From: an uncultured delta proteobacterium
Lineage (GTDB): Bacteria; Desulfobacterota; Binatia; Binatales; Binataceae
Assembly: GCA_963794325.1 (NCBI GenBank)
Contig: CAWCDG010000007.1
Span: forward strand, 224,001-288,000
DNA length: 64,000 nt
Direction of reading: 5' to 3'
A model generated the notes under the pieces. That model was not told the DNA's origin. It did no database searches and worked only from the letters and a program-made list of their open reading frames with translations. Both the position numbers and the translations under genes were made by a program. How positions within the stretch are numbered: the stretch's first letter is position 1; each line of letters begins with the position of its first letter. Shown one piece after another: positions 2,126 to 11,831 of this stretch.

Positions 2126-2131
2126 CGCCCG

Positions 2132-3136
2132 ATGGCTAATGGACAACGAATTGCGTTGATTGGTGCGACGGGAGCCGTCGGCCAGACCACGCTGAAAATC
2201 CTCGAGCAGCGGAACTTTCCGGTTCGCGAGCTGCGCGCCTACGCGTCGGCGCGGTCGGCGGGCAAGACCGTCACGTTCGCCGGCGAGTCGATACCGGTTG
2301 AGAAACTGGACGCCAACTCGTTCAAGGGAATCGATATCGTCCTGTTCTCGGCGGGATCCGAGCAATCGCGCGAGTTCGCGCCGATCGCGGTCAAGGCCGG
2401 CGCTGTCGTAATCGACAAGTCGAATGCGTTTCGAATGGACCCCGACGTGCCGCTGGTGGTGCCCGAGATCAACTCCGCCGCCGCTAGAAATCATAAGGGT
2501 ATTCTCGCATGCCCGAACTGCACGACAATCATCACCGTGATGCCGCTGAAACCGCTGCATGACCTTGGGCGGCTGAAGCGAGTCGTCGCGACCAGCTTCC
2601 AGGCCGTGTCGGGTGCGGGCGTGAACGGCGTTGCTGAGCTGACCGAGCAGACGATGGCGTGGTCGAAGGACGAGCCAATCAAGGCGAAGTATTTTCAGCA
2701 TCAGATTGCCTTCAACCTCATTCCGCATATCGACAAATTCGTCGAGGGCGGGTACACCGGCGAGGAAATCAAGCTGGTCAACGAAATTCGCAAGATCCTC
2801 GACCAGCCCGACTTGCTTATTTCGCCGACCACGGTGAGGGTGCCGGTCTTCACCGCGCATTCGATTTCCATCAACGCCGAAACCGAGACGAAGATCGCGG
2901 CGGCCGACGCGCGCGAGGCGTTCGCGAATTTCCCGGGAATCCGGCTCTACGACGATCCCGCGCAGAATCGCTATCCGATGCCGATCATCGTCGAGGGCCA
3001 GGACGATTGCTTCGTCGGCCGAATCCGCGAGGACCTGAGCTGTCCCAACGCGCTGAACTTCTGGGTGGTGGGCGACCAGTTGCGCAAGGGCGCCGCGCTC
3101 AACGGCGTCCAGATTGCGGAACTGCTGATCGGCTAG
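2132..3136 (+). CDS. asd: aspartate-semialdehyde dehydrogenase
   Basis: GATGAVG, VPLVVPEIN, PNCTT catalytic Cys, QAVSGAG, DQLRKGAALN; start moved to ATG 2132. Confidence 0.95.
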   Translation: MANGQRIALIGATGAVGQTTLKILEQRNFPVRELRAYASARSAGKTVTFAGESIPVEKLDANSFKGIDIVLFSAGSEQSREFAPIAVKAGAVVIDKSNAFRMDPDVPLVVPEINSAAARNHKGILACPNCTTIITVMPLKPLHDLGRLKRVVATSFQAVSGAGVNGVAELTEQTMAWSKDEPIKAKYFQHQIAFNLIPHIDKFVEGGYTGEEIKLVNEIRKILDQPDLLISPTTVRVPVFTAHSISINAETETKIAAADAREAFANFPGIRLYDDPAQNRYPMPIIVEGQDDCFVGRIREDLSCPNALNFWVVGDQLRKGAALNGVQIAELLIG

Positions 3137-3162: not shown

Positions 3163-4536
3163 TCACGGCATCGGGATGGCCGTGCTGACCGGATTCCACT
3201 GCGTGGCGCCGGTCGGACTTCCACCCAGTACGGGCGCTGACAGATCGACGCGAACCAGGAACAGCGGCGGCTGCGGATCATGATCGTTGGCCCACGAATG
3301 ATAGTACGGATCCGTGTCCGCCAGCATGTAGGCCAGATTATTATTCACATCGACTGACAACGTGTTCGGATCGCCGACAATACCCAGTTGGGTCGGCGTG
3401 CCGCTGACGTCTCCCATTGGAATCAGCCCGGCGCAAATCGTAAAGACCGACGCTGCGTCCGGTTGGGTGCCGCTTCCCGGCTGTCCATTGTTGTCGAGCG
3501 CACCTGGCACGCTCGTGGCCGGCAGATGAATCATTTTCAGATTCTGGCCGAATTCGTCGCTGATAACCCCCTGATGGGTGGCTGCGTTGACGACCGTCTG
3601 TCCGCCCGGCCCTTCGCCAGTCGGTGGGAGAACTCCAAGTCCGTTGAATCCGATGCTCAGTGCAGTCGCCGGCGTCACGGCGGTATCCAGCGTTCCGAAG
3701 TTGAACGCGTTGCCGTGGTCCTCGCCGACCTCATCGGATTGCAACAGGATGTTGGTCGTGGGATCGAATCCGACTCCGTCCGCTATAGACTCGGTGCCTT
3801 CGAAGGATTGCACGACCAGCGGAAGCGTCCCGATATTCGTTATCTCGTTCGTTCCGTCAGTCGAGATGAACAAAATGCCGGTCGTTGGGTTCAGCGAGAT
3901 CGAATCGGTACCGGCCACCGAGACCACCGATGCGGCGTTGAAGACCGGCGGTTCCACCGACGTATCCATCAGACCGATCGTTGAGGTTCCGGCCACCACC
4001 AGCAGGTTACGCACGGGATCGGCAATCACTCCGCCGAAGCGGTTCGAGTTGGTGATCCCAGGGCAGGGAATTGTGTTGATGATCGCCTGGGTCGTCGTGT
4101 TGATCTCAAAGATGCTGACTGAGCCGTCAGCGAGGGTTCCTTCCGCATACACGCGGCCGTTCTTCTGATTGAAGGCTCCTCCGGTCGGCACCACCACGTT
4201 CGACAGTTCGAGAAGCTTGATGACCGGATTGGCCGCACCGATCGCCAGGTTGACAACCGCCAACTGCGAACTACCGGGAACCGCGGCAGGATTGATCCGC
4301 GCTCCTCCTCCGCCGCTGAGCGTATAGATCGGCACGTAACCGACATTGTTCGCCGTGTCGATCGCGATAAGACCCTGACCCGTGGCGCTGCTCGGCGGCG
4401 GTGTCGGGGTAGCAGTAGGTCGGTGCTTGGTAGTAGTCGAACAAGACGCGCAGGGATCGCATCCCGCTGTGTAGAGTGACATCCCCGCAATCCCGATTAA
4501 CAAACAGACAACCAGCCCCGCCCATCGAGAGGTCAT
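3163..4536 (-). CDS. secreted/lipoprotein, beta-propeller-like (YncE-like repeats)
   Basis: MTSRWAGLVV...TAGC lipobox-like signal, Pro/Thr linker, repeated GxAxDPxxN blades; SD AGGAG before ATG 4536. Confidence 0.6.
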   Translation of the reverse strand: MTSRWAGLVVCLLIGIAGMSLYTAGCDPCASCSTTTKHRPTATPTPPPSSATGQGLIAIDTANNVGYVPIYTLSGGGGARINPAAVPGSSQLAVVNLAIGAANPVIKLLELSNVVVPTGGAFNQKNGRVYAEGTLADGSVSIFEINTTTQAIINTIPCPGITNSNRFGGVIADPVRNLLVVAGTSTIGLMDTSVEPPVFNAASVVSVAGTDSISLNPTTGILFISTDGTNEITNIGTLPLVVQSFEGTESIADGVGFDPTTNILLQSDEVGEDHGNAFNFGTLDTAVTPATALSIGFNGLGVLPPTGEGPGGQTVVNAATHQGVISDEFGQNLKMIHLPATSVPGALDNNGQPGSGTQPDAASVFTICAGLIPMGDVSGTPTQLGIVGDPNTLSVDVNNNLAYMLADTDPYYHSWANDHDPQPPLFLVRVDLSAPVLGGSPTGATQWNPVSTAIPMP

Positions 4537-4691
4537 AGTCGATCTCCTACTGCTTTGTCGCAAAATCCGCAGTACGGCTCTGCGAGATTCGATTTCCCAC
4601 CCGGAACTCCCCCAAAACTGGGGCGACCATAGACAAATGCACGCGCAGTAGCAAGCGAATTCTACATTCGCCTGACCGATTGGTTTGTCGA

Positions 4692-4721
4692 TTGACAACG
4701 CACGCGCTCGCATATTACGCT
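4692..4721 (+). promoter_or_regulatory. sigma70-type promoter of the riboswitch operon
   Basis: TTGACA-N18-TACGCT about 20 nt upstream of the SAM-I aptamer. Confidence 0.6.
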
Positions 4722-4743
4722 TAGCCAACTGCAAACGATTGCA

Positions 4744-4863: not shown

Positions 4864-4965
4864 GAGAGTATTAAGCCCTCGTCTCACCGTCCTCGCAGGA
4901 TTTGTCACCGACCACATCGGCCCTGACCGCGTTGCACTCTCGACCGGCGGGAGAATCGCGAGGAA

Positions 4966-5700
4966 GTGGGAAACGATCGAATACTGATTGTTGGCGTCGG
5001 AGGACTTGGCGTCCCCGCATTATGGTCGCTGGCGCGGGCCGGCGCGCAACGCCTGACGCTCGTCGATCCCGACCCGGTCGAAGTTTCGAATCTCGCGCGC
5101 CAGGTGATCTATCACGGTCGCGATATCGGCGCGCCGAAGGTTGAAGCTGCGGCTCGATGGCTCGGCGAGCGGTTCCCAGCCGTTCACGTCGAGACGCGTC
5201 CGGTTGCGCTCGACGAATCCAACGCGGCGTGTCTGGTCGCGGAACACGATTTTGTAATCGACGCGACGGACAGTCCAGTCGCGAAATTTCTCATCAACGA
5301 CACGTGTATCGCGGCGCGGACGTCGTTCGTTTATGGCGGCGTAGTCGGGATGACCGGGCAGGCGATGACGGTGATTCCCACCGCGACGGCTTGCATCCGA
5401 TGCGTGTTCGAGGCTCCGCCTGATGAAAGCGAAATCCAGAGTTGCCGCGAGGCGGGAATCGTCGGTCCGGTCGCGGGCGCGATTGGCGAGATGCAGGCGG
5501 GCGAGGCGATGTGCGCCTTGCGCGCGCAAAGACCGTTACTCTCAGGAAAAATTCTCACATACGACGCGTCCCGGGTAAGCCGGGTGCGTATTACGTCGGT
5601 TAGCCCGCGCCAGGGATGCGACTGCGGCGCGTGGAAACAGAAACGCGAGCATCACGAAATCGCGAGCGGCGGGCAAGTAACAGAATCGAGGACACGATGA
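4966..5700 (+). CDS. ThiF/MoeB-family E1-like adenylyltransferase lacking the N-terminal RYxRQ arm
   Basis: GVGGLG, VDPD, SNLARQ, GAPKV, IDATD, CIRC, SCREAG, GCDC; in-frame TGA at 4924-4926 excludes an upstream arm. Confidence 0.9.
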   Translation: MGNDRILIVGVGGLGVPALWSLARAGAQRLTLVDPDPVEVSNLARQVIYHGRDIGAPKVEAAARWLGERFPAVHVETRPVALDESNAACLVAEHDFVIDATDSPVAKFLINDTCIAARTSFVYGGVVGMTGQAMTVIPTATACIRCVFEAPPDESEIQSCREAGIVGPVAGAIGEMQAGEAMCALRAQRPLLSGKILTYDASRVSRVRITSVSPRQGCDCGAWKQKREHHEIASGGQVTESRTR

Positions 5701-6965
5701 GCTACATCACAAATCTGAAATGTCGCGAGTGCGGCCAGGAGTATCCGATAAGTCCGCTCCACGTCTGCGAGACCTGCTTCGGTCCGCTCGAAGTGACCTA
5801 CGACTACGCGCGCATTCGCGCGGCGATCTCGCGCTCGATAATCGAGAAACGTCCGCACAATCTGTGGCGCTATCGCGAATTGCTGCCGGTCGATTTCAAC
5901 GAGAACGATGTCGTCGGCCCGAACTCCGGCTTCACTCCGCTTCTGCATTGCAAACGCCTTGGCGCGGAACTCGGCCTCAAGCATCTCTATATAAAAGACG
6001 ACACCGTCAACCATCCGACCCTGTCGTACAAGGACCGCGTCGTGTCGGTGTCGATTACCAAGGCGCGCGAGTTCGGCTTCACCACCGTGTCGTGCGCAAG
6101 CACCGGCAACCTGGCGACGGCGGTCGCGGCACACGCGGCGCGCGCGGGCCTGCAATGCTACATCTTCATGCCCACTGGCGTGGAGGCGGGAAAAGTCGTC
6201 GGCTCGACGATTTACGGCGCCAAGGTGATAACGATTCGCGGCAACTACGACGACGTCAACCGGCTCTGCAGCGAAATCGCGGACAAGTACGGGTGGGCCT
6301 TCGTCAATATCAACCTGCGGCCGTTCTATACCGAAGGCGCGAAGACTTTCGGCTTCGAAGTCGCGGAGCAGCTCGGCTGGCGCCTGCCGGATCATATCGT
6401 TGTACCGACTGCGGGCGGGACGATTCTGCCGAAGATCGCGAAAGCATTTAAGGAGATGAAAGAAGTCGGGTTGATCAAGACCGGCGAGTTCAAAATTCAT
6501 TCCGCGCAGGCCGCCGGCTCCGCGCCCGTAATTCACGCGCTGCACAAGCATACCGACCTGATAACGCCGGTGAAGCCCGACACCATCGCGAAGTCGATCG
6601 CGATCGGAAATCCCGCCGACGGCTTCTACGTGCTCAAGGCGGTGCGTGATTCCGGCGGATGGGGCGACGTCGCCACCGACCCGGAAATCATCGATGCGAT
6701 CAAGCTGCTCGCGCGCACCGAGGGAATCTTCGCCGAGCCCGCCGGCGGCACCACGCTCGCGGTTGCGCTCAAGCTCGTCAAGCAGGGGCGCATCAAGCCC
6801 GACGAAACCGTGGTCGTGTCGATCACCGGCAACGGCTACAAAACACTCGAAGCGGTAGCGAGCGCGATCGAGCAGCCGTCAATAATCGACGCGCGCCTGA
6901 AAGATTTCGACGCGTTGTTCGATCGGCTAACCAATGGAAAACGCACCGCCGACAGCGCCGCATAG
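5697..6965 (+). CDS. threonine-synthase-family PLP enzyme (possible MetM-type homocysteine synthase)
   Basis: N-terminal CxxC..CxxC, PTLSYKDR, CASTGN, FAEPAGG, ITGNGYK; ATGA overlap with upstream gene. Confidence 0.85.
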   Translation: MSYITNLKCRECGQEYPISPLHVCETCFGPLEVTYDYARIRAAISRSIIEKRPHNLWRYRELLPVDFNENDVVGPNSGFTPLLHCKRLGAELGLKHLYIKDDTVNHPTLSYKDRVVSVSITKAREFGFTTVSCASTGNLATAVAAHAARAGLQCYIFMPTGVEAGKVVGSTIYGAKVITIRGNYDDVNRLCSEIADKYGWAFVNINLRPFYTEGAKTFGFEVAEQLGWRLPDHIVVPTAGGTILPKIAKAFKEMKEVGLIKTGEFKIHSAQAAGSAPVIHALHKHTDLITPVKPDTIAKSIAIGNPADGFYVLKAVRDSGGWGDVATDPEIIDAIKLLARTEGIFAEPAGGTTLAVALKLVKQGRIKPDETVVVSITGNGYKTLEAVASAIEQPSIIDARLKDFDALFDRLTNGKRTADSAA

Positions 6966-7035
6966 GCTCTGCGGTTGTCTCGGCTACGAGGCGAGCATAG
7001 TTCTAAAAGTTCAAACAGGAGGTTAGTCCCCCATC

Positions 7036-7314
7036 ATGGCAGTACGCGTCAGAGTTCCAACCCCACTTCGCAGGTTTACTGCCGGCGTCGATGAAGTCCC
7101 GGCCGACGGTGCGTCGATCAAGGCGGTGATCGAAGATCTCGAACGGCGTCATCCCGGGATGCGCGAGCGGCTGCTCGATGAAAAAGGCGACATCCGCCGC
7201 TTCGTAAATATTTATCTCAACGGCGACGACGTCCGCTTTCTCGATGCGATCAACTCCAAGGTAAAGGATGGCGACGACATCTCAATCGTTCCCGCGATTG
7301 CCGGCGGACGCTGA
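7036..7314 (+). CDS. MoaD/ThiS/CysO-family sulfur carrier protein ending in GG-R
   Basis: VRVPTPLR, RRFVNIYLNGDDVRF, SIVPAIAGGR; SD AGGAGG. Confidence 0.92.
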   Translation: MAVRVRVPTPLRRFTAGVDEVPADGASIKAVIEDLERRHPGMRERLLDEKGDIRRFVNIYLNGDDVRFLDAINSKVKDGDDISIVPAIAGGR

Positions 7315-7333
7315 CCTCGGCGCGCCGGTCGAC

Positions 7334-8341
7334 GTGCATGAGCGCGTCGTGCCGCTTCGTGAGGTCGTTCCGGTCGGGCGCGCGAATAACGTGCTCGATC
7401 TCGTCGGCAACACCCCGCTGCTCGAAATAAAGCGGCTCACCGCGGGACTGATTCCCGCGGGCGTGCGGATTTTCGCCAAGCTCGAGGGCTTCAACCCCGG
7501 CGGCTCGGTGAAGGATCGGCCGGCGAAGAAAATGCTCGAGGTCGGAATCGCGCAAGGCAAGCTGAAACCCGGCAAAGTGATCCTCGATTCGACGTCGGGC
7601 AACACCGGAATCGCGCTGGCGATGCTCGGCGCGACGCTCGGCTATCCGGTCGAGCTGGTGATGCCGTCGAACGTGAGCCGCGAGCGCAAGAAAATCGTCG
7701 AAGCTTACGGCGCGAAGATTCATTTCTCCGATCCGATGGAAGGATCCGACGGCGCGATCGTCATGTGCCGCAAACTGCTTGGGCAGAATCCCGATCGCTA
7801 CTTCAAGCCCGACCAGTACAACAACGAGGCCAACTCGATTGCGCATTTCGAGACCACCGGCCCGGAAATCTGGCGTCAGACGCGCGGCGAGGTGACGCAT
7901 TTCGTAGCCGCGATCGGCACCGGCGGCACCATCATGGGCACCGGCAGATTCCTGAAGTCGAAGAGTCGCGCAATCAAGGTGATCGCGGTCGAGCCTGACG
8001 ACGCGATGCACGGACTCGAGGGCCTCAAGCACATGGCGAGCTCGATCGTCCCGGGCATCTATCACGAAAAAGATCTCGACGACAAAATTCAGGTCGGCAC
8101 CGAGGAGGCGTACGAAATGGTGTACGCGCTCGGGCAGACCGAAGGTATCCTGGTCGGCCAATCGTCGGGGGCTGCGATAATCGCGGCTCTCAAGCTGGCG
8201 CGCTCGATTCGCGACGGCACCATCGTCACGATATTCGCCGACTTCGGCGACAAGTATCTCTCGACGAATTTGTGGATCGGATGGCAGGAATGGCGTCCCG
8301 AGCGCCTGCAACAAGTTATCGCCAAGTGGCAGAAGAAGTAA
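7334..8341 (+). CDS. cysM: cysteine synthase family (CysM-like) PLP enzyme
   Basis: VGNTPL, KLEGFNPGGSVKDR, STSGNTG, GTGGT, GQSSGA; start uncertain (GTG 7334 or 7349). Confidence 0.85.
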   Translation: MHERVVPLREVVPVGRANNVLDLVGNTPLLEIKRLTAGLIPAGVRIFAKLEGFNPGGSVKDRPAKKMLEVGIAQGKLKPGKVILDSTSGNTGIALAMLGATLGYPVELVMPSNVSRERKKIVEAYGAKIHFSDPMEGSDGAIVMCRKLLGQNPDRYFKPDQYNNEANSIAHFETTGPEIWRQTRGEVTHFVAAIGTGGTIMGTGRFLKSKSRAIKVIAVEPDDAMHGLEGLKHMASSIVPGIYHEKDLDDKIQVGTEEAYEMVYALGQTEGILVGQSSGAAIIAALKLARSIRDGTIVTIFADFGDKYLSTNLWIGWQEWRPERLQQVIAKWQKK

Positions 8342-8349
8342 TCGACAAA

Positions 8350-8595
8350 ATGGAACGTATCCACGAACGCTACTACCTGAGCTATCCGCGCACGCTGATC
8401 AAGGAGCCGATCCTTTATCAGTTGGTGAAGAAGTTCGATCTGGTTTTCAATATTCGCGGCGCCAGCGTGTCCGAGGAGATGGGCCTGGTCGCGGTCGAAT
8501 TCGAAGGCAGCAGTGATCAGATCGAGCGCGCGCTGACCTGGCTGCGCAGCACCGGCGTGACGGTCGAGCCAATCGAAAAGAACGTGATCGAATAG
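8350..8595 (+). CDS. stand-alone NIL-domain protein
   Basis: EPILYQLVKKFDLVFNIRGA..G..VEFEG...AL.WL...GV.VE matches the NIL (MetN C-terminal) pattern. Confidence 0.85.
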   Translation: MERIHERYYLSYPRTLIKEPILYQLVKKFDLVFNIRGASVSEEMGLVAVEFEGSSDQIERALTWLRSTGVTVEPIEKNVIE

Positions 8596-8611
8596 GTCGC
8601 GCGAGCGCGCG

Positions 8612-9190
8612 ATGACTCTCACGGACGCGCAAATCGATCGATACAGCCGGCAAATAATCGTGCCGCGAGTCGGCGGCCGCGGTCAGGAACGCTTGCTCGC
8701 CGCACGAATACTGCTCGCCGGCGATGCGCGCGACATCGAGGCGCCGCTCGCATACCTGGTCGGCGCGGGCGTCGGATCGATTCTGCTGAGGCCATCTGTT
8801 TATCAAGGAGTATGCGCTGAAAAACGCGAACTCAATCCGGACGTAACCGTGACAGATGAACGAAAGGCGCCAATCGATCTGGCACTGATGATCATCGGAA
8901 GTGAGTCGGCACGCAAAGTTGCAGATGAGATCGCGAACGATCGCGATGTGCAATCATTGGTGATCGCGCGCCTCGACGCGCCAGGAAAAATCGTCGTCAT
9001 CCCCGACGCGCACGGATCGCCAATTCTCGGCGCAGGATTCGGCTCGCGCTCCGAAGCTGCGGATTTTATCGCGATGCTTGCGACGGCGGAGGCATTCAAG
9101 CTGATCGCCGGCTACCAGGAGAATCCGTCGAGCGCGACGATCGAAATCGACTTCGACGGTTACCAGACCACAGTTCGCGTCAATCCGTGA
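8612..9190 (+). CDS. degenerate ThiF/MoeB-like protein (RYSRQ arm kept, ATP-binding motifs lost)
   Basis: LTDAQIDRYSRQII...GQERL, LVGAGVG, ELNPDVTV, ATAEAFKLIAG retained; no GxGxxG, SNLxRQ or CxxC. Confidence 0.75.
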   Translation: MTLTDAQIDRYSRQIIVPRVGGRGQERLLAARILLAGDARDIEAPLAYLVGAGVGSILLRPSVYQGVCAEKRELNPDVTVTDERKAPIDLALMIIGSESARKVADEIANDRDVQSLVIARLDAPGKIVVIPDAHGSPILGAGFGSRSEAADFIAMLATAEAFKLIAGYQENPSSATIEIDFDGYQTTVRVNP

Positions 9191-9858
9191 TGTACAAACT
9201 CTGGATGTTCGATTTCGACAACACGCTCGCGCGGCTCGAGCCCGAGGTCGATTGGGCCGGCGGCCGGCTCATCCTCGAACCGTACATGCGATCAGCCGGC
9301 GCGCCCGAGGAACTGTTCACCCGAATCCCGCGCGGCAACCTCCCGCTCTACGACGCGTACCGCTCACTTACTGTGCACGACCCCGATCAGCCGAAAATAA
9401 TCGGAACGCTCCAACACGCTTCTGACATAATCGAGAAACTCGAGTTGGCAGGAGTCGATCGCGCACAACCGCTCGAAGGTGCGATCGAAATACTCGCGAC
9501 ACTGAAGAAGAGCGGCGCTTCGATCGCGATCGTGACGTCCAATTCTTCGAAGACCGTCAAACGCTGGTTCGACAGACGTGCAACCGCGTCGGTCGATGCG
9601 ATCGTCGGGCGTGACACACTGCTCGCACTCAAGCCGGCCCCCGATATGATTCTTCGCGCACTCGAATTATTTTCCGTCGATCGATCCGAGGCCGCCTTCG
9701 TCGGCGACAGCGATGCCGACCTCCGCGCCGCGCAAAATTGTAACGTGCGATTCTACGGAATCGCACCCACCGACATTGCCCGCGATCGATTGCTCAATGC
9801 TGGAGCTAAAGAAATTTTCAGCTCGCCCGCCGCGTTGGCCGTTGCTTTGTCATCCTGA
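9187..9858 (+). CDS. HAD-family hydrolase/phosphatase
   Basis: FDFDNTL, IVTSN, KPAP, FVGDSDAD motifs. Confidence 0.88.
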   Translation: MMYKLWMFDFDNTLARLEPEVDWAGGRLILEPYMRSAGAPEELFTRIPRGNLPLYDAYRSLTVHDPDQPKIIGTLQHASDIIEKLELAGVDRAQPLEGAIEILATLKKSGASIAIVTSNSSKTVKRWFDRRATASVDAIVGRDTLLALKPAPDMILRALELFSVDRSEAAFVGDSDADLRAAQNCNVRFYGIAPTDIARDRLLNAGAKEIFSSPAALAVALSS

Positions 9859-10027
9859 CGAAGCGAGCAACGCGAGCGCCTCGTGTCATCCTGACGACGG
9901 GAGCACTAGCGACGGGAGGAATGGATCTCGGACAGCTTCGCGCACGCGAAGCCGGTTCCGGTTTCCCAAAATCGCGAAGCGCTCCACATTTGCGCCGGTT
10001 CCGGTCTCTGAAATCGCGAAGCGCTCC
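9848..10027. repeat. REP-like GTCATCCTGA elements plus a 34-35 bp direct repeat
   Basis: tgtcatcctgacga at 9848 and 9884; gccggttccggt...aaatcgcgaagcgctcc at 9951-9985 and 9994-10027. Confidence 0.7.
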
Positions 10028-10115
10028 TTTTCAAGCCTTGTTTCCTCCGACAATATTAAGTAACTTCTGAGGTTCAGTAAGTAATCTATTCCTAAGGGAG
10101 CGTCAGTTTTAGCAG

Positions 10116-10658
10116 ATGGATCAAGGGTTTACCTTGTGGTTTACAGGCCTGTCCGGGGCGGGAAAATCAACGCTTGCGAATCTGGTCGCCGACGAACTGC
10201 GCAAGCGCGGGCATCGCGTCGAAATCCTCGACGGTGACGAAGTACGCACCAATCTCTCCAAGGGCCTCGGCTTTTCCAAGGAGGATCGCGACATCAACAT
10301 CCGGCGGATCGGCTACGTATGCCATCTGCTGGCGCGCAACGGCGTCATCTCGATCTCGGCGGCGATTTCGCCCTACCGCGAGGTGCGCGACGAGGTGCGG
10401 CGCAATCACGACCGCTTCTTCGAGGTGTACGTGCGATGCACGATCGACAAGCTGGTCGAGCGCGACGTCAAGGGCCTCTACAAGAAGGCGCTGGCCGGCG
10501 AGATCAAATCGTTCACCGGCGTGTCGGACCCTTACGAGGAACCGCTGACGCCGGAACTCGTCGTCGATAGCAGCACCGAGACCGTCGAGCAGAGCCTGGG
10601 CAAGCTGCTCGGACGCCTCGAAGAGCTGAATTACATCAACAAGGGAGCACGGAGATGA
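10116..10658 (+). CDS. cysC: adenylyl-sulfate kinase
   Basis: [45 protein letters not shown]. Confidence 0.96.
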
Positions 10659-11831
10659 GCGTGCGCGATGACGCAATTTCGGCACACGGCGGCGGCGAGC
10701 TAGTCGATCTGAAAGCGCCGGCCAGTGAGCGCGCTGCACTCGCGGCGCATGCGGCGAAGCTCGCGAGCGTCACGCTCAATGCGCGCGACATCGCCGACCT
10801 CGAGATGCTTGCGACGGGCGCCTTCTCTCCGCTGACCGGCTTCATGGGCGAGGCGGACTACACTCGCGCGCGCGACGAGATGCGCCTCGCGTCGGGCGTG
10901 CCGTGGTCGATTCCAATCACGCTCGGCGTCGATGAGGCCACAGCTAAATCGCTGAAGACCGGAAGCGAGATCGCGCTCGCGACCGACGACGGCAAGCGGC
11001 TGGCGATTCTCAAGCTTGCGGAAATTTACAAGGTCGATCGCAAGAACGAAGCGCAGAACGTGTTCGGCACCTCGGAAGACGCGCATCCGGGCGCGAAGAA
11101 CGTCACCTCGATGCCGCCATACTGCCTCGCCGGAAACGTCACGCTCATTGAAGAGATACCGGGGCGCACCTTCCTGGAATTTCCGCGCGAGCCGCGGCAG
11201 ACGCGCGCGGCGTTTCGCGAGCGTGGATGGAAAAAGATCGTCGCGTTCCAGACGCGCAACCCGACCCATCGCGCGCACGAGTACATCCAGAAAGCGGCGC
11301 TCGAAATCTGCGACGGCCTGATGATTCATCCGCTGGTCGGCGAGACCAAGGGTGACGACGTGCCCGCCGCGGTCCGCATGGAGACTTACAAAGTATTGCT
11401 CGACGCGTACTACCCCAAGGACCGCGCGATGATCGGCGTGTTCCCGGCGCACATGCGCTACGGCGGCCCGCGCGAGGCGATTCTGCACGCGATCGCGCGG
11501 CGCAATTACGGATGCACGCATTTCATCGTCGGGCCGCGATCACGCCGGCGTCGGCAATTACTACGGCAGTTACGATGCGCAGAAAATCTTCGAGCGCTTC
11601 GCGCCGGCCGAACTTGGAATTACGCCGCTGATGTTCGAGAACACTTTCTACTGCAGGCGATGCAACTCGATGGCGTCGTTCAAGACCTGCCCGCATTCAG
11701 ACGCGGACCGGGTGATACTTTCGGGCACGAAAGTTCGCGAGATGCTGCGCGCGGGTGAAGCGCCGCCGCCGGAATTCACCCGCCCCGAGCTGGCAGCGAT
11801 CCTGGTGAAAGCAATGCACGACGCGAAGTAG
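10655..11831 (+). CDS. sat: sulfate adenylyltransferase (apparent +1 frameshift at about 11531-11533)
   Basis: [26 protein letters not shown]; removing one G restores VGRDHAGVG and joins the ILSGTKVR C-terminus ending 11831. Confidence 0.92.

Follow-up and report, generated by a model that had tools for sequence, protein, structure and literature searches.

Two complementary ThiF/MoeB-family genes in a cysteine/homocysteine operon probably encode the subunits of a heterodimeric adenylyltransferase

The window considered here is the whole 64,000-nucleotide stretch of DNA that was analysed (G000:C7:224001-288000; in our labels G denotes a genome, L a locus and f a family). It contains a cysteine/homocysteine operon of a soil bacterium, laid out as a tight same-strand run of genes on the + strand at ~4966-11831, and two genes of this run encode ThiF-fold proteins whose sequence features complement each other. 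E1a (4966-5700, + strand; 244 aa, GTG start) is an active-type ThiF/MoeB adenylyltransferase without the N-terminal RYxRQ arm, and E1b (8612-9190, + strand; 192 aa) is a catalytically degenerate ThiF-fold protein in which the arm is present (R10, Y11, S12, R13, Q14). E1a and E1b probably combine as subunits of one heterodimeric ThiF/MoeB-type adenylyltransferase, which serves a carrier of the CysO/MetO type and came about through duplication and complementary loss. Sequence anatomy, fold, conservation, complementary distribution and a gene tree were observed directly for the pair, which has the composition expected of a heterodimeric E1, namely a complete active domain beside one that lacks an ATP site and retains the N-terminal Arg.

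The translation of E1a carries GVGGLG, SNLARQ, K58, IDATD, CIRC, QSC and GCDC, and thereby the GxGxxG, SNLxRQ, Lys and DxTD Asp elements and the two CxxC-type zinc pairs of the ThiF/MoeB/E1 family. It scores 208.1 bits against Pfam ThiF (PF00899; cut-off 28.1), with residues 3-218 placed on profile positions 20-236 of 238, and its match to the MoeB model PRK05690 spans positions 33-237 of 250. None of the NCBIfam equivalog cut-offs was reached by E1a (adenyl_thiF, for example, gave 182.3 bits against 275.25), and no rhodanese domain was found in it. Missing from E1a is the N-terminal arm that holds Arg14 in MoeB and Arg11 in ThiF. The protein starts at a GTG 9 residues ahead of GxGxxG and aligns with residues 31-245 of E. 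coli MoeB (1jw9), so that MoeB residues 1-30 are without a counterpart; an in-frame TGA at 4924-4926 lies 14 codons 5′ of the start, and no RYxRQ arm was found in any frame upstream of E1a. A first-pass annotation of the DNA had described a full set of adenylation motifs without an arm and a stop codon closing the frame upstream, and both descriptions are borne out. In an alignment of 55 E1a sequences (A3), G10, G12, G15, D34, S41, N42, L43, R45, Q46 and K58 are invariant, as are D99, D102, C143, C146, C160 and C218.

E1b, whose N-terminus reads MTLTDAQIDRYSRQII, has the arm and has lost most of what E1a retains. As a single sequence it matches the MoeB models only through residues 2-59, at positions 4-61 of 250, and its Pfam ThiF score of 19.8 bits is under the cut-off of 28.1. 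A profile of 70 E1b members aligns full-length with the E. coli proteins ThiF and MoeB, at E 1.2e-21 and 3.2e-21 respectively, and this alignment places E1b R13 on MoeB R14 and E1b R10 on MoeB R11. Relative to MoeB and ThiF, a deletion has removed the DxDxVxxSNLxRQ..K stretch; GxGxxG is degenerate (AGDARD) and the Asp motif is lost, leaving E1b without the nucleotide-binding and catalytic motifs of the family. Alignment of E1b with E1a in hhalign gave a probability of 96.8%, with E1b residues 31-192 on E1a residues 4-229. The AlphaFold2 model of E1b has a predicted local distance difference test score (pLDDT) of 91.4 and a predicted template modelling score (pTM) of 0.86, and its best fold matches are ThiF, Uba4 and MoeB, with query-normalised template modelling (TM) scores of 0.65-0.72. 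The protein is a compacted ThiF fold, and both profile and fold place it in the ThiF family. The E1b family profile also gives weak matches to the SAE1 N-terminus (E about 0.005-0.007). The first-pass annotation had counted the zinc cysteines among the losses of E1b together with GxGxxG and SNLxRQ; the retention of the arm and the loss of the two motifs stand, but the CPxC and CxC cysteines are kept by most members of the E1b family and are lost only in near relatives of the window. No catalytic-cysteine domain was found in E1a or E1b, both of which consist of the adenylation fold only, and the family scan of the operon open reading frames (ORFs) revealed no E2-like gene.

E1b is a real, conserved family under purifying selection, and E1a is constrained as well. 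In alignment A1, made of HMMER matches (70 E1b sequences), R10, R13, Q14, Q25 and G53 are invariant in 70 of 70. The median ratio of nonsynonymous to synonymous rates (omega, NG86 method) is 0.32 for E1b (interquartile range 0.26-0.45) and 0.25 for E1a, with 515 of 1485 pairs usable. At E<=1e-3 a 90%-clustered collection contained 1238 E1b-like proteins among 1916 candidates, and a 50%-clustered library gave 1617 representatives, falling to 179 at 1e-10 and 25 at 1e-30; many of the weaker matches in this library are ordinary ThiF proteins that align via the arm. A class-wide search with profile A1 hit 150 of 151 genomes with E1b not separated from ordinary ThiF, and was used for locating only. 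Across 301 sampled genomes of the phylum, full-length matches to the window E1b occur only in 4 genomes of its own family, more distant E1b forms being detectable only by profile, and a language-model atlas placed E1b only with Candidatus Binatota clusters. The source names of close homologs are Candidatus Binatus or Binataceae, and E1b proteins are annotated as 'hypothetical' or 'ThiF family adenylyltransferase'.

The distribution of the two forms was surveyed in neighbourhoods anchored on the carrier gene, which avoids the circularity of searching by E1b. These came from 47 genomes, about one per genus; 22 further loci were chosen by E1b-profile hits and not by the carrier, giving 69 loci from 19 families. 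Frames on the carrier strand were scored against E1a and E1b hidden Markov models (HMMs), then checked for SNLxRQ and for an in-frame arm at most 60 residues upstream. The split state, with an arm-less, motif-complete E1a upstream and an arm-bearing, motif-less E1b downstream, was found in 57 of the 69 loci and in 16 families, and an arm motif upstream of E1a was seen in 0 of these 57. At nine loci (five in f6, two in f106 and two in f108) the only E1 bears an RYSRQ arm of its own, and E1b is absent from the stretch fetched, while in two loci of f3 (L139 of G076 and L161 of G399) the E1a and E1b positions are both occupied by complete E1s that possess arm, GxGxxG and SNLxRQ. At one locus, L177, the upstream side is lost at a contig end. 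All 57 arm-less E1a proteins are accompanied by E1b, no arm-less E1a standing without one among the 69 loci, and a degenerate E1b was found beside an arm-bearing single operon E1 in 0 of 9 cases. Profiling for joint occurrence of arm-less and motif-less paralogs had been proposed beforehand, and the pattern recurs in 57 of 69 operons, too often to be put down to chance.

The sequence x[YFW]xRQ is present in 58 of 58 degenerate E1b proteins. The Arg equivalent to MoeB Arg14 and the Gln that follows it never vary, and the first Arg of the arm is kept in 48 of the 58, with L, H, I or W in the other 10. The expectation that homologs of the 8612 gene would conserve the arm and evolve unlike pseudogenes held up on both counts (Arg-Gln in 58/58, median omega 0.32). 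A third genus of f3, G367 (L160), is split, and its E1b looks recently degenerated, since it still scores 126 bits on the E1a model; seen as a whole, f3, with G076 and G399 doubled and complete and G367 split, looks like a transition caught within one family. At the other extreme, short E1b forms of 119-190 aa occur in several families. Only their first 55-60 residues align with the family, covering the arm, the helix and the first strand-helix, and the remainder is lineage-specific; such forms were noted at L140, L141, L142, L143, L145, L037, L039, L158, L159, L185, L191, L193 and L194. One candidate from outside the class, L040 (G021), was rejected as an E1b: its arm-bearing frame becomes low-complexity after the GxGxxG region, and we read it as a broken or mis-assembled ThiF.

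A second set of 80 Binataceae loci was picked through E1b itself, by profile and by the peptide pattern QI[ED]RYSRQI, so that presence of the motif is circular in this set and was not counted. E1a lies in the flank of 69 of the 80. The other 11 comprise flanks that run into contig ends, insertions upstream of E1b, and L079, L082 and L091, where a long upstream flank was examined and held no E1a. Among the 69 Binataceae E1a frames, 63 could be judged for an arm motif upstream of GxGxxG, and none had one. In nine of the 80 loci E1a is followed directly by E1b, the two genes lying 11 nt apart in seven and 20 nt apart in L095 and overlapping by 4 nt in L069, and these nine are without the ThrC-like, carrier, CysM and NIL genes. 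Eight of the nine, compared as 28 pairs, gave omega values of 0.32 (E1a) and 0.35 (E1b). A minimal order E1a-E1b-HAD-CysC-Sat was noted in L034/L061 (G204), in G326 and in G344, and at L052, L057, L060-L063, L068, L069 and L095. One metagenome-assembled genome has both the full operon (L053) and the minimal pair (L063). In G204, G326 and G344, which belong to the genus of the window and are 96-98% complete, the pair is present and the only match to the window carrier is 33-35% identical; in G204, where one locus was viewed, this low-identity match adjoins a molybdenum cofactor-binding aldehyde oxidase subunit. Retention of the pair without a close carrier in these three genomes makes a stronger case for a two-gene unit. 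Apparent read-through frames in L073 and L120 had suggested a fusion of E1a to the ThrC-like protein, which we do not claim; the L120 reference holds a stop.

The origin of the pair was approached with a quick IQ-TREE analysis of 44 sequences (arms trimmed, 234 columns), rooted on two housekeeping rhodanese-MoeB proteins. E1b forms one clade (Shimodaira-Hasegawa-like approximate likelihood ratio test, SH-aLRT, 97), and the complete downstream E1 of G076 is sister to it (SH-aLRT 89, not starred). Grouped within the E1a clade (97) are also the upstream complete E1 of G076 and, from f6 and f108, the single E1s that bear an arm. This topology fits a single duplication of the operon E1 followed by complementary loss, inside this bacterial class: after the duplication, the arm would have been lost from one copy and the ATP motifs from the other. 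Each stage of such a series appears among living genomes, from a single complete E1 (f6, f106, f108) through two complete E1s (G076, G399) and a freshly split pair (G367) to fully split pairs and, last, E1b cut down to little beyond the arm. Whether the active/inactive E1 heterodimer, so characteristic of ubiquitin-like activation in eukaryotes, was independently reinvented in a bacterial sulfur pathway by duplication and complementary degeneration, with all stages extant and with E1a strictly needing the E1b arm, is a stronger proposition, for which we put the chances at about even.

The E1a-E1b complex was folded from A3 and a matching E1b alignment (A2), both with 55 rows from the same loci in the same order, with ATP included but unscored. 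Scores for the complex came to 0.91, 0.92 and 0.91, and none of the 3 controls rose above 0.00; in a calibration run without ligand and without custom alignments, 58 of 80 solved complexes and 2 of 110 mismatched pairs attained this mark. The runs share at least 87% of contacts, and the partner pLDDT is at least 83. The model supports binding of E1a to E1b, short of demonstration, and the dimer and the placement of the arm described here are those of the model. In it, E1b contributes residues 6, 9-14, 16-18, 20, 44-53, 70-75, 127-129 and 151-190 to the interface. Residues 6, 9-14, 16-18 and 20, which include the arm, are predicted to lie against E1a residues 40-41, 43-45, 47-48 and 50 at the SNLARQ phosphate loop, with E1b R10 contacting E1a V40, S41 and L43. 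Predicted interface residues are more conserved than the rest of each protein, at 0.609 against 0.486 elsewhere in E1b (A1; permutation p 0.004) and 0.795 against 0.701 in E1a (p 0.018).

Based on these results, we propose that E1a would adenylate the C-terminal glycine of the carrier, and that E1b, unable to bind nucleotide, would replace the second protomer of the usual homodimer. The N-terminal helix of E1b, with its invariant Arg13-Gln14, would be laid in trans on the SNLARQ phosphate loop of E1a, and the arm would complete a single active site, as SAE1/NAE1 or, in Uba1 and BilD, the adenylation domain that is inactive (IAD) do. The acyl-adenylate would then be turned into a thiocarboxylate, which would feed CysM for cysteine and, where present, the ThrC-like MetM-type enzyme for homocysteine. 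For catalysis, the dependence on E1b, the sulfur donor and the substrates alike, this scheme is what we infer. The pairing itself and the complementation of the arm are well supported, by comparative genomics and by a complex model that passes. The argument that E1a may be inactive alone draws on how strictly the two forms complement each other in their distribution and on a finger Arg that never varies, and not on chemistry.

Several points weigh against this proposal. The fingers MoeB Arg14 and ThiF Arg11 are non-essential, and TcdA is without one, according to the accessible portion of PMC13139853; since the MoeB/ThiF finger can be dispensed with, an arm-less E1a might work alone. The pass of the complex may reflect likeness to homodimers, because those of MoeB and ThiF are already solved, and the model covers the heterodimer alone, hence it says nothing of preference over an E1a-E1a homodimer; a contact of R13 with ATP lies beyond its reach, ATP being unscored. 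When the arm is left out, the conservation difference at the E1b interface is small (0.548 against 0.471), and the conservation test lumps buried with interface residues. The short 119-190 aa E1b forms may no longer dimerise. E1b is the fastest protein of the operon, with 38-83% identity in Binataceae loci where the ThrC-like protein keeps 82-99%. Relatedness among the surveyed genomes means that the 57/9/2 counts have to be read as a pattern across families and not as independent events. In a tree built by a quick method, E1b has terminal branches of two to five times the length seen in E1a, and the number of arm losses is beyond the resolution of that tree. G204, G326 and G344, finally, make the co-encoded carrier less likely as the sole substrate. 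For the two central claims of the first-pass annotation the balance is mixed. An active/inactive heterodimer gains from the complementary pairing (57/57) and the passing model, with the finger reported as non-essential in what could be seen of PMC13139853 standing on the other side; against activation of the co-encoded carrier by the pair, in its strong form, counts that three genomes keep the pair without a close copy of that carrier.

The dispensable finger of MoeB and ThiF, and its absence from TcdA (PMC13139853, as far as its text is accessible), would also suit an arrangement in which E1a is a self-sufficient arm-less homodimer and E1b an accessory acting elsewhere, with no part in the E1a active site; docking of the carrier, CysM, the ThrC-like enzyme or NIL, or sulfur delivery, are tasks it might have. 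E1a has all the catalytic motifs that this would take, and E1b diverges fast over its C-terminal two thirds, which are shortened in several families. Yet the invariant part of E1b is the arm with its finger Arg-Gln (58/58) and no new surface; E1b occurs with every arm-less E1a (57/57) and never with an arm-bearing operon E1 (0/9), and the model lays the arm on the phosphate loop of E1a. We consider an accessory role of this kind unlikely. Less likely again is that E1b is a regulatory 'poison' subunit, competing with E1a homodimerisation to lower or gate activation of the carrier, for instance by sulfur status. A dead paralog that still dimerises, as the model predicts, could behave in this way, fine-tuning by inactive Tcd1 is speculated on in the available part of PMC13139853, and E1b shares an operon with E1a in which no terminator excess was seen. 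However, constitutive co-transcription, a fixed gene order and some translational coupling (the 4-nt overlap in L069) fit a stoichiometric subunit better, and a poison subunit leaves unexplained why E1a has lost its arm in every lineage that bears E1b. That E1b is a functionless, decaying duplicate retained by linkage is highly improbable: it has the fastest rate in the operon, lost motifs (zinc cysteines too in the relatives of the window) and a variable length, but its frames are intact across 16 families with omega of about 0.32-0.35, its arm residues are invariant, its fold is confidently predicted, and the pair is retained as a unit even without the carrier block. A heterodimer completed by the E1b arm is the reading that we prefer.

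The remaining genes of the run, all on the + strand, suggest a role for the pair in a thiocarboxylate-dependent pathway. The carrier (7036-7314) has the ThiS/MoaD fold and a C-terminus ...AIAGG-R, and scores 55.2 bits against Pfam ThiS and 60.2 bits against NCBIfam SAMP1 (cut-off 60). It has the C-terminal GG of such carriers. Of the 60 carrier tails read, 59 extend beyond the GG, 57 of them by a single variable residue and 2 by two or three; R follows GG in 46 of these tails, and otherwise N, E, H, A, D or L. With one variable residue after GG, trimming would be needed before activation. There is one carrier ortholog per genome in 140 of 151 genomes of the class, a tally that includes the unpublished G378. 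No JAMM (Mec/JAB) gene was found in the operon, and the only Prok-JAB in the 85%-complete genome is a 345-aa protein (G000:C2:207808-208116) beside a helix-turn-helix gene.

The gene between E1a and the carrier (5694-6965) encodes a paralog of threonine synthase that has a Cys4 ribbon at its N-terminus; it scores 327.7 bits on PRK08197 (cut-off 303) and also matches PALP. A second, canonical thrC is present at G000:C3:450001-450963, and the ThrC-like gene of the operon is likely misnamed threonine synthase; from the description in the accessible part of the GapMind 2026 preprint, its product is a candidate MetM-type homocysteine synthase. Downstream of the carrier, the CysM-type cysteine synthase (7268-8341) scores 349.1 bits against TIGR01136 cysKM (cut-off 344.15) and 370.7 against TIGR01138 cysM, under the cut-off of 394.2; its Pfam PALP match begins at residue 43, and its true start is probably ~20-40 codons into the ORF. 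The small NIL-domain protein (8272-8595; Pfam NIL 55.6 bits, residues 33-99) probably starts at a Met at about 8350, and its relatives align from residue 27-33. A stand-alone NIL protein (~80 aa) stands between CysM and E1b in most families with the ThrC-like gene, and the NIL gene is often absent where the ThrC-like gene is absent (f101, f102, f105). The pathway reading relies on the family scans, on the separate canonical thrC and on the MetO/MetM/Mec/MoeZ description in the portion of the GapMind 2026 preprint that was available.

After E1b come a HAD-family hydrolase (9187-9858; Pfam HAD_2 85.6 bits), whose start overlaps the E1b stop by 4 nt, an adenosine 5′-phosphosulfate (APS) kinase (CysC, 10116-10658; Pfam APS_kinase 205.9 bits) and an ATP sulfurylase (Sat, 10655-11831; Pfam PUA_2 + ATP-sulfurylase). 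The HAD gene lies downstream of E1b in most of the 80 Binataceae loci. Our guess, by analogy with a passage in the GapMind preprint, is that the hydrolase might make O-phosphoserine or O-phosphohomoserine by a ThrH-like phosphotransfer. Sat occupies two frames in the assembly; the switch between them falls near 11530 (window 11500-11560), where the conserved GRDHAG motif contains a short run of G. In the relatives L034 and L035 it is an uninterrupted single frame of 391-393 aa, and the two-frame form is either an assembly error or a real frameshift. Some 18 kb upstream of the operon, a 411-aa rhodanese-MoeB fusion with an RYSRH arm (G000:C7:205111-206346; L001 1111-2346) is the only other ThiF-family gene of the genome. 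It adjoins ThiC-like and peroxiredoxin-like ORFs (named by eye) and is probably a housekeeping activator for MoaD/ThiS.

A consensus scan showed no excess of + strand terminators inside the run, the two strands together having 11 terminator-like sites where shuffled sequence gave 8.8 +/- 3.3. Directly upstream of the operon, a 523-aa ORF on the - strand (3163-4734) has a hydrophobic N-terminal stretch, then a Cys and a Thr/Pro-rich linker, and gave no match in the Pfam scan. Upstream of the operon, on the + strand (~2130-3136), an ORF resembles aspartate-semialdehyde dehydrogenase (named by eye); used as a tblastn query, it is kept upstream of the operon in many Binataceae loci. In three soil metatranscriptome runs only 0.05-0.06 of sampled words were present, and the contigs obtained, mostly 88-95% alike and spanning E1a to CysM, derive from relatives. 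Two contigs (X2 record 16, 8423-8649; X3 record 24, 8427-8664) extend from NIL to 40-50 bases inside E1b. Beyond that point E1b is nearly uncovered, as expected given its divergence, and no conclusion on expression was drawn.

To our knowledge, arguments on how symmetric MoeB/ThiF-like homodimers gave rise to the asymmetric eukaryotic E1 usually draw on end states alone. The bacterial class studied here offers a natural series of unsplit, duplicated-complete and split forms of one operon enzyme, which is small, looks soluble and acts on a simple carrier, and therefore makes duplication, degeneration, complementation and the contribution of an Arg arm in trans testable at the bench. If our reading is true, a residue that is dispensable in MoeB/ThiF homodimers became the reason to keep a whole gene. 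For annotation, labels such as 'ThiF family adenylyltransferase' would be misleading for E1b, which, judged by its motifs, should be unable to bind ATP.

In full-text literature, which largely leaves subscription journals uncovered, no two-gene active/inactive E1 in a sulfur-carrier pathway was found, nor any report that connects CysO-type pathways to Binatia. PMC1779556 lists operons of prokaryotes that combine an E1 with a carrier, JAB and cysteine synthase; in the part of that paper that was accessible, 'inactive' refers to E2-like domains only, 'heterodimer' is absent and no inactive second E1 is described. The first-pass annotation had suggested that the arrangement was not known from sulfur-carrier pathways, and the two-gene form indeed appears to be undescribed there, but active/inactive pairing as such is published for BilD and for Tcd1-Tcd2, as the accessible texts on them state.

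The inactive adenylation domain of eukaryotic E1 gives a conserved N-terminal Arg to the single active site (PMC10557695 and PMC12355090, in their available parts), and SAE1-SAE2/UBA2, NAE1/APPBP1-UBA3 and the IAD and active adenylation domain (AAD) of Uba1 each join, like the window pair, one active and one inactive adenylation domain. In contrast to these enzymes, the window pair is without a catalytic-cysteine domain, a ubiquitin-fold domain (UFD) or an E2, stands in a metabolic sulfur-carrier setting, has small subunits (244 and 192 aa) and would be an independent and recent development inside one bacterial class. Known bacterial E1-like proteins are homodimeric with the exception of BilD, according to what is available of the preprint PMC10557695. 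In BilD, part of the BilABCD antiviral system, fused inactive and active domains are likewise bacterial and the key Arg, Arg9, comes from the inactive one; on the same partial source, BilD differs in being a single fused polypeptide with a CYS domain and E2-linked protein conjugation, whereas the window pair consists of two genes at opposite ends of a cysteine/homocysteine biosynthesis operon. Yeast Tcd1-Tcd2, the tRNA ct6A dehydratase, is a ThiF-family active/inactive heterodimer in which the inactive paralog offers an Arg finger (Tcd1 Arg59), as E1b would; from the accessible portion of PMC13139853, it differs in being eukaryotic, acting on tRNA, largely keeping the Tcd1 nucleotide site and having a non-essential finger, with R59A costing only 26% of activity.

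The closest solved structures to E1a and E1b are those of the E. coli MoeB-MoaD and ThiF-ThiS systems, in which MoeB R14 and ThiF R11 correspond to E1b R13. The same chemistry, adenylation of a GG carrier, would be expected of the window pair, but both protomers are complete and active in MoeB and ThiF, while in the window these features are split over two genes. CysO-CysM-Mec-MoeZ of Mycobacterium and MetO-MetM-Mec-MoeZ of Streptomyces share with the operon a ThiS/MoaD-fold carrier and probably a CysM-type and a ThrC-like MetM-type enzyme (PMC3227635 and the GapMind 2026 preprint, each as far as available). Compared with those pathways, the activator in the window has no rhodanese domain and is split, no Mec is encoded in the operon, and NIL, HAD, CysC and Sat are added. 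Asymmetric E1s are known from these earlier systems; a two-gene version in a sulfur-carrier setting, with an unusually complete set of living intermediates, appears to be new.

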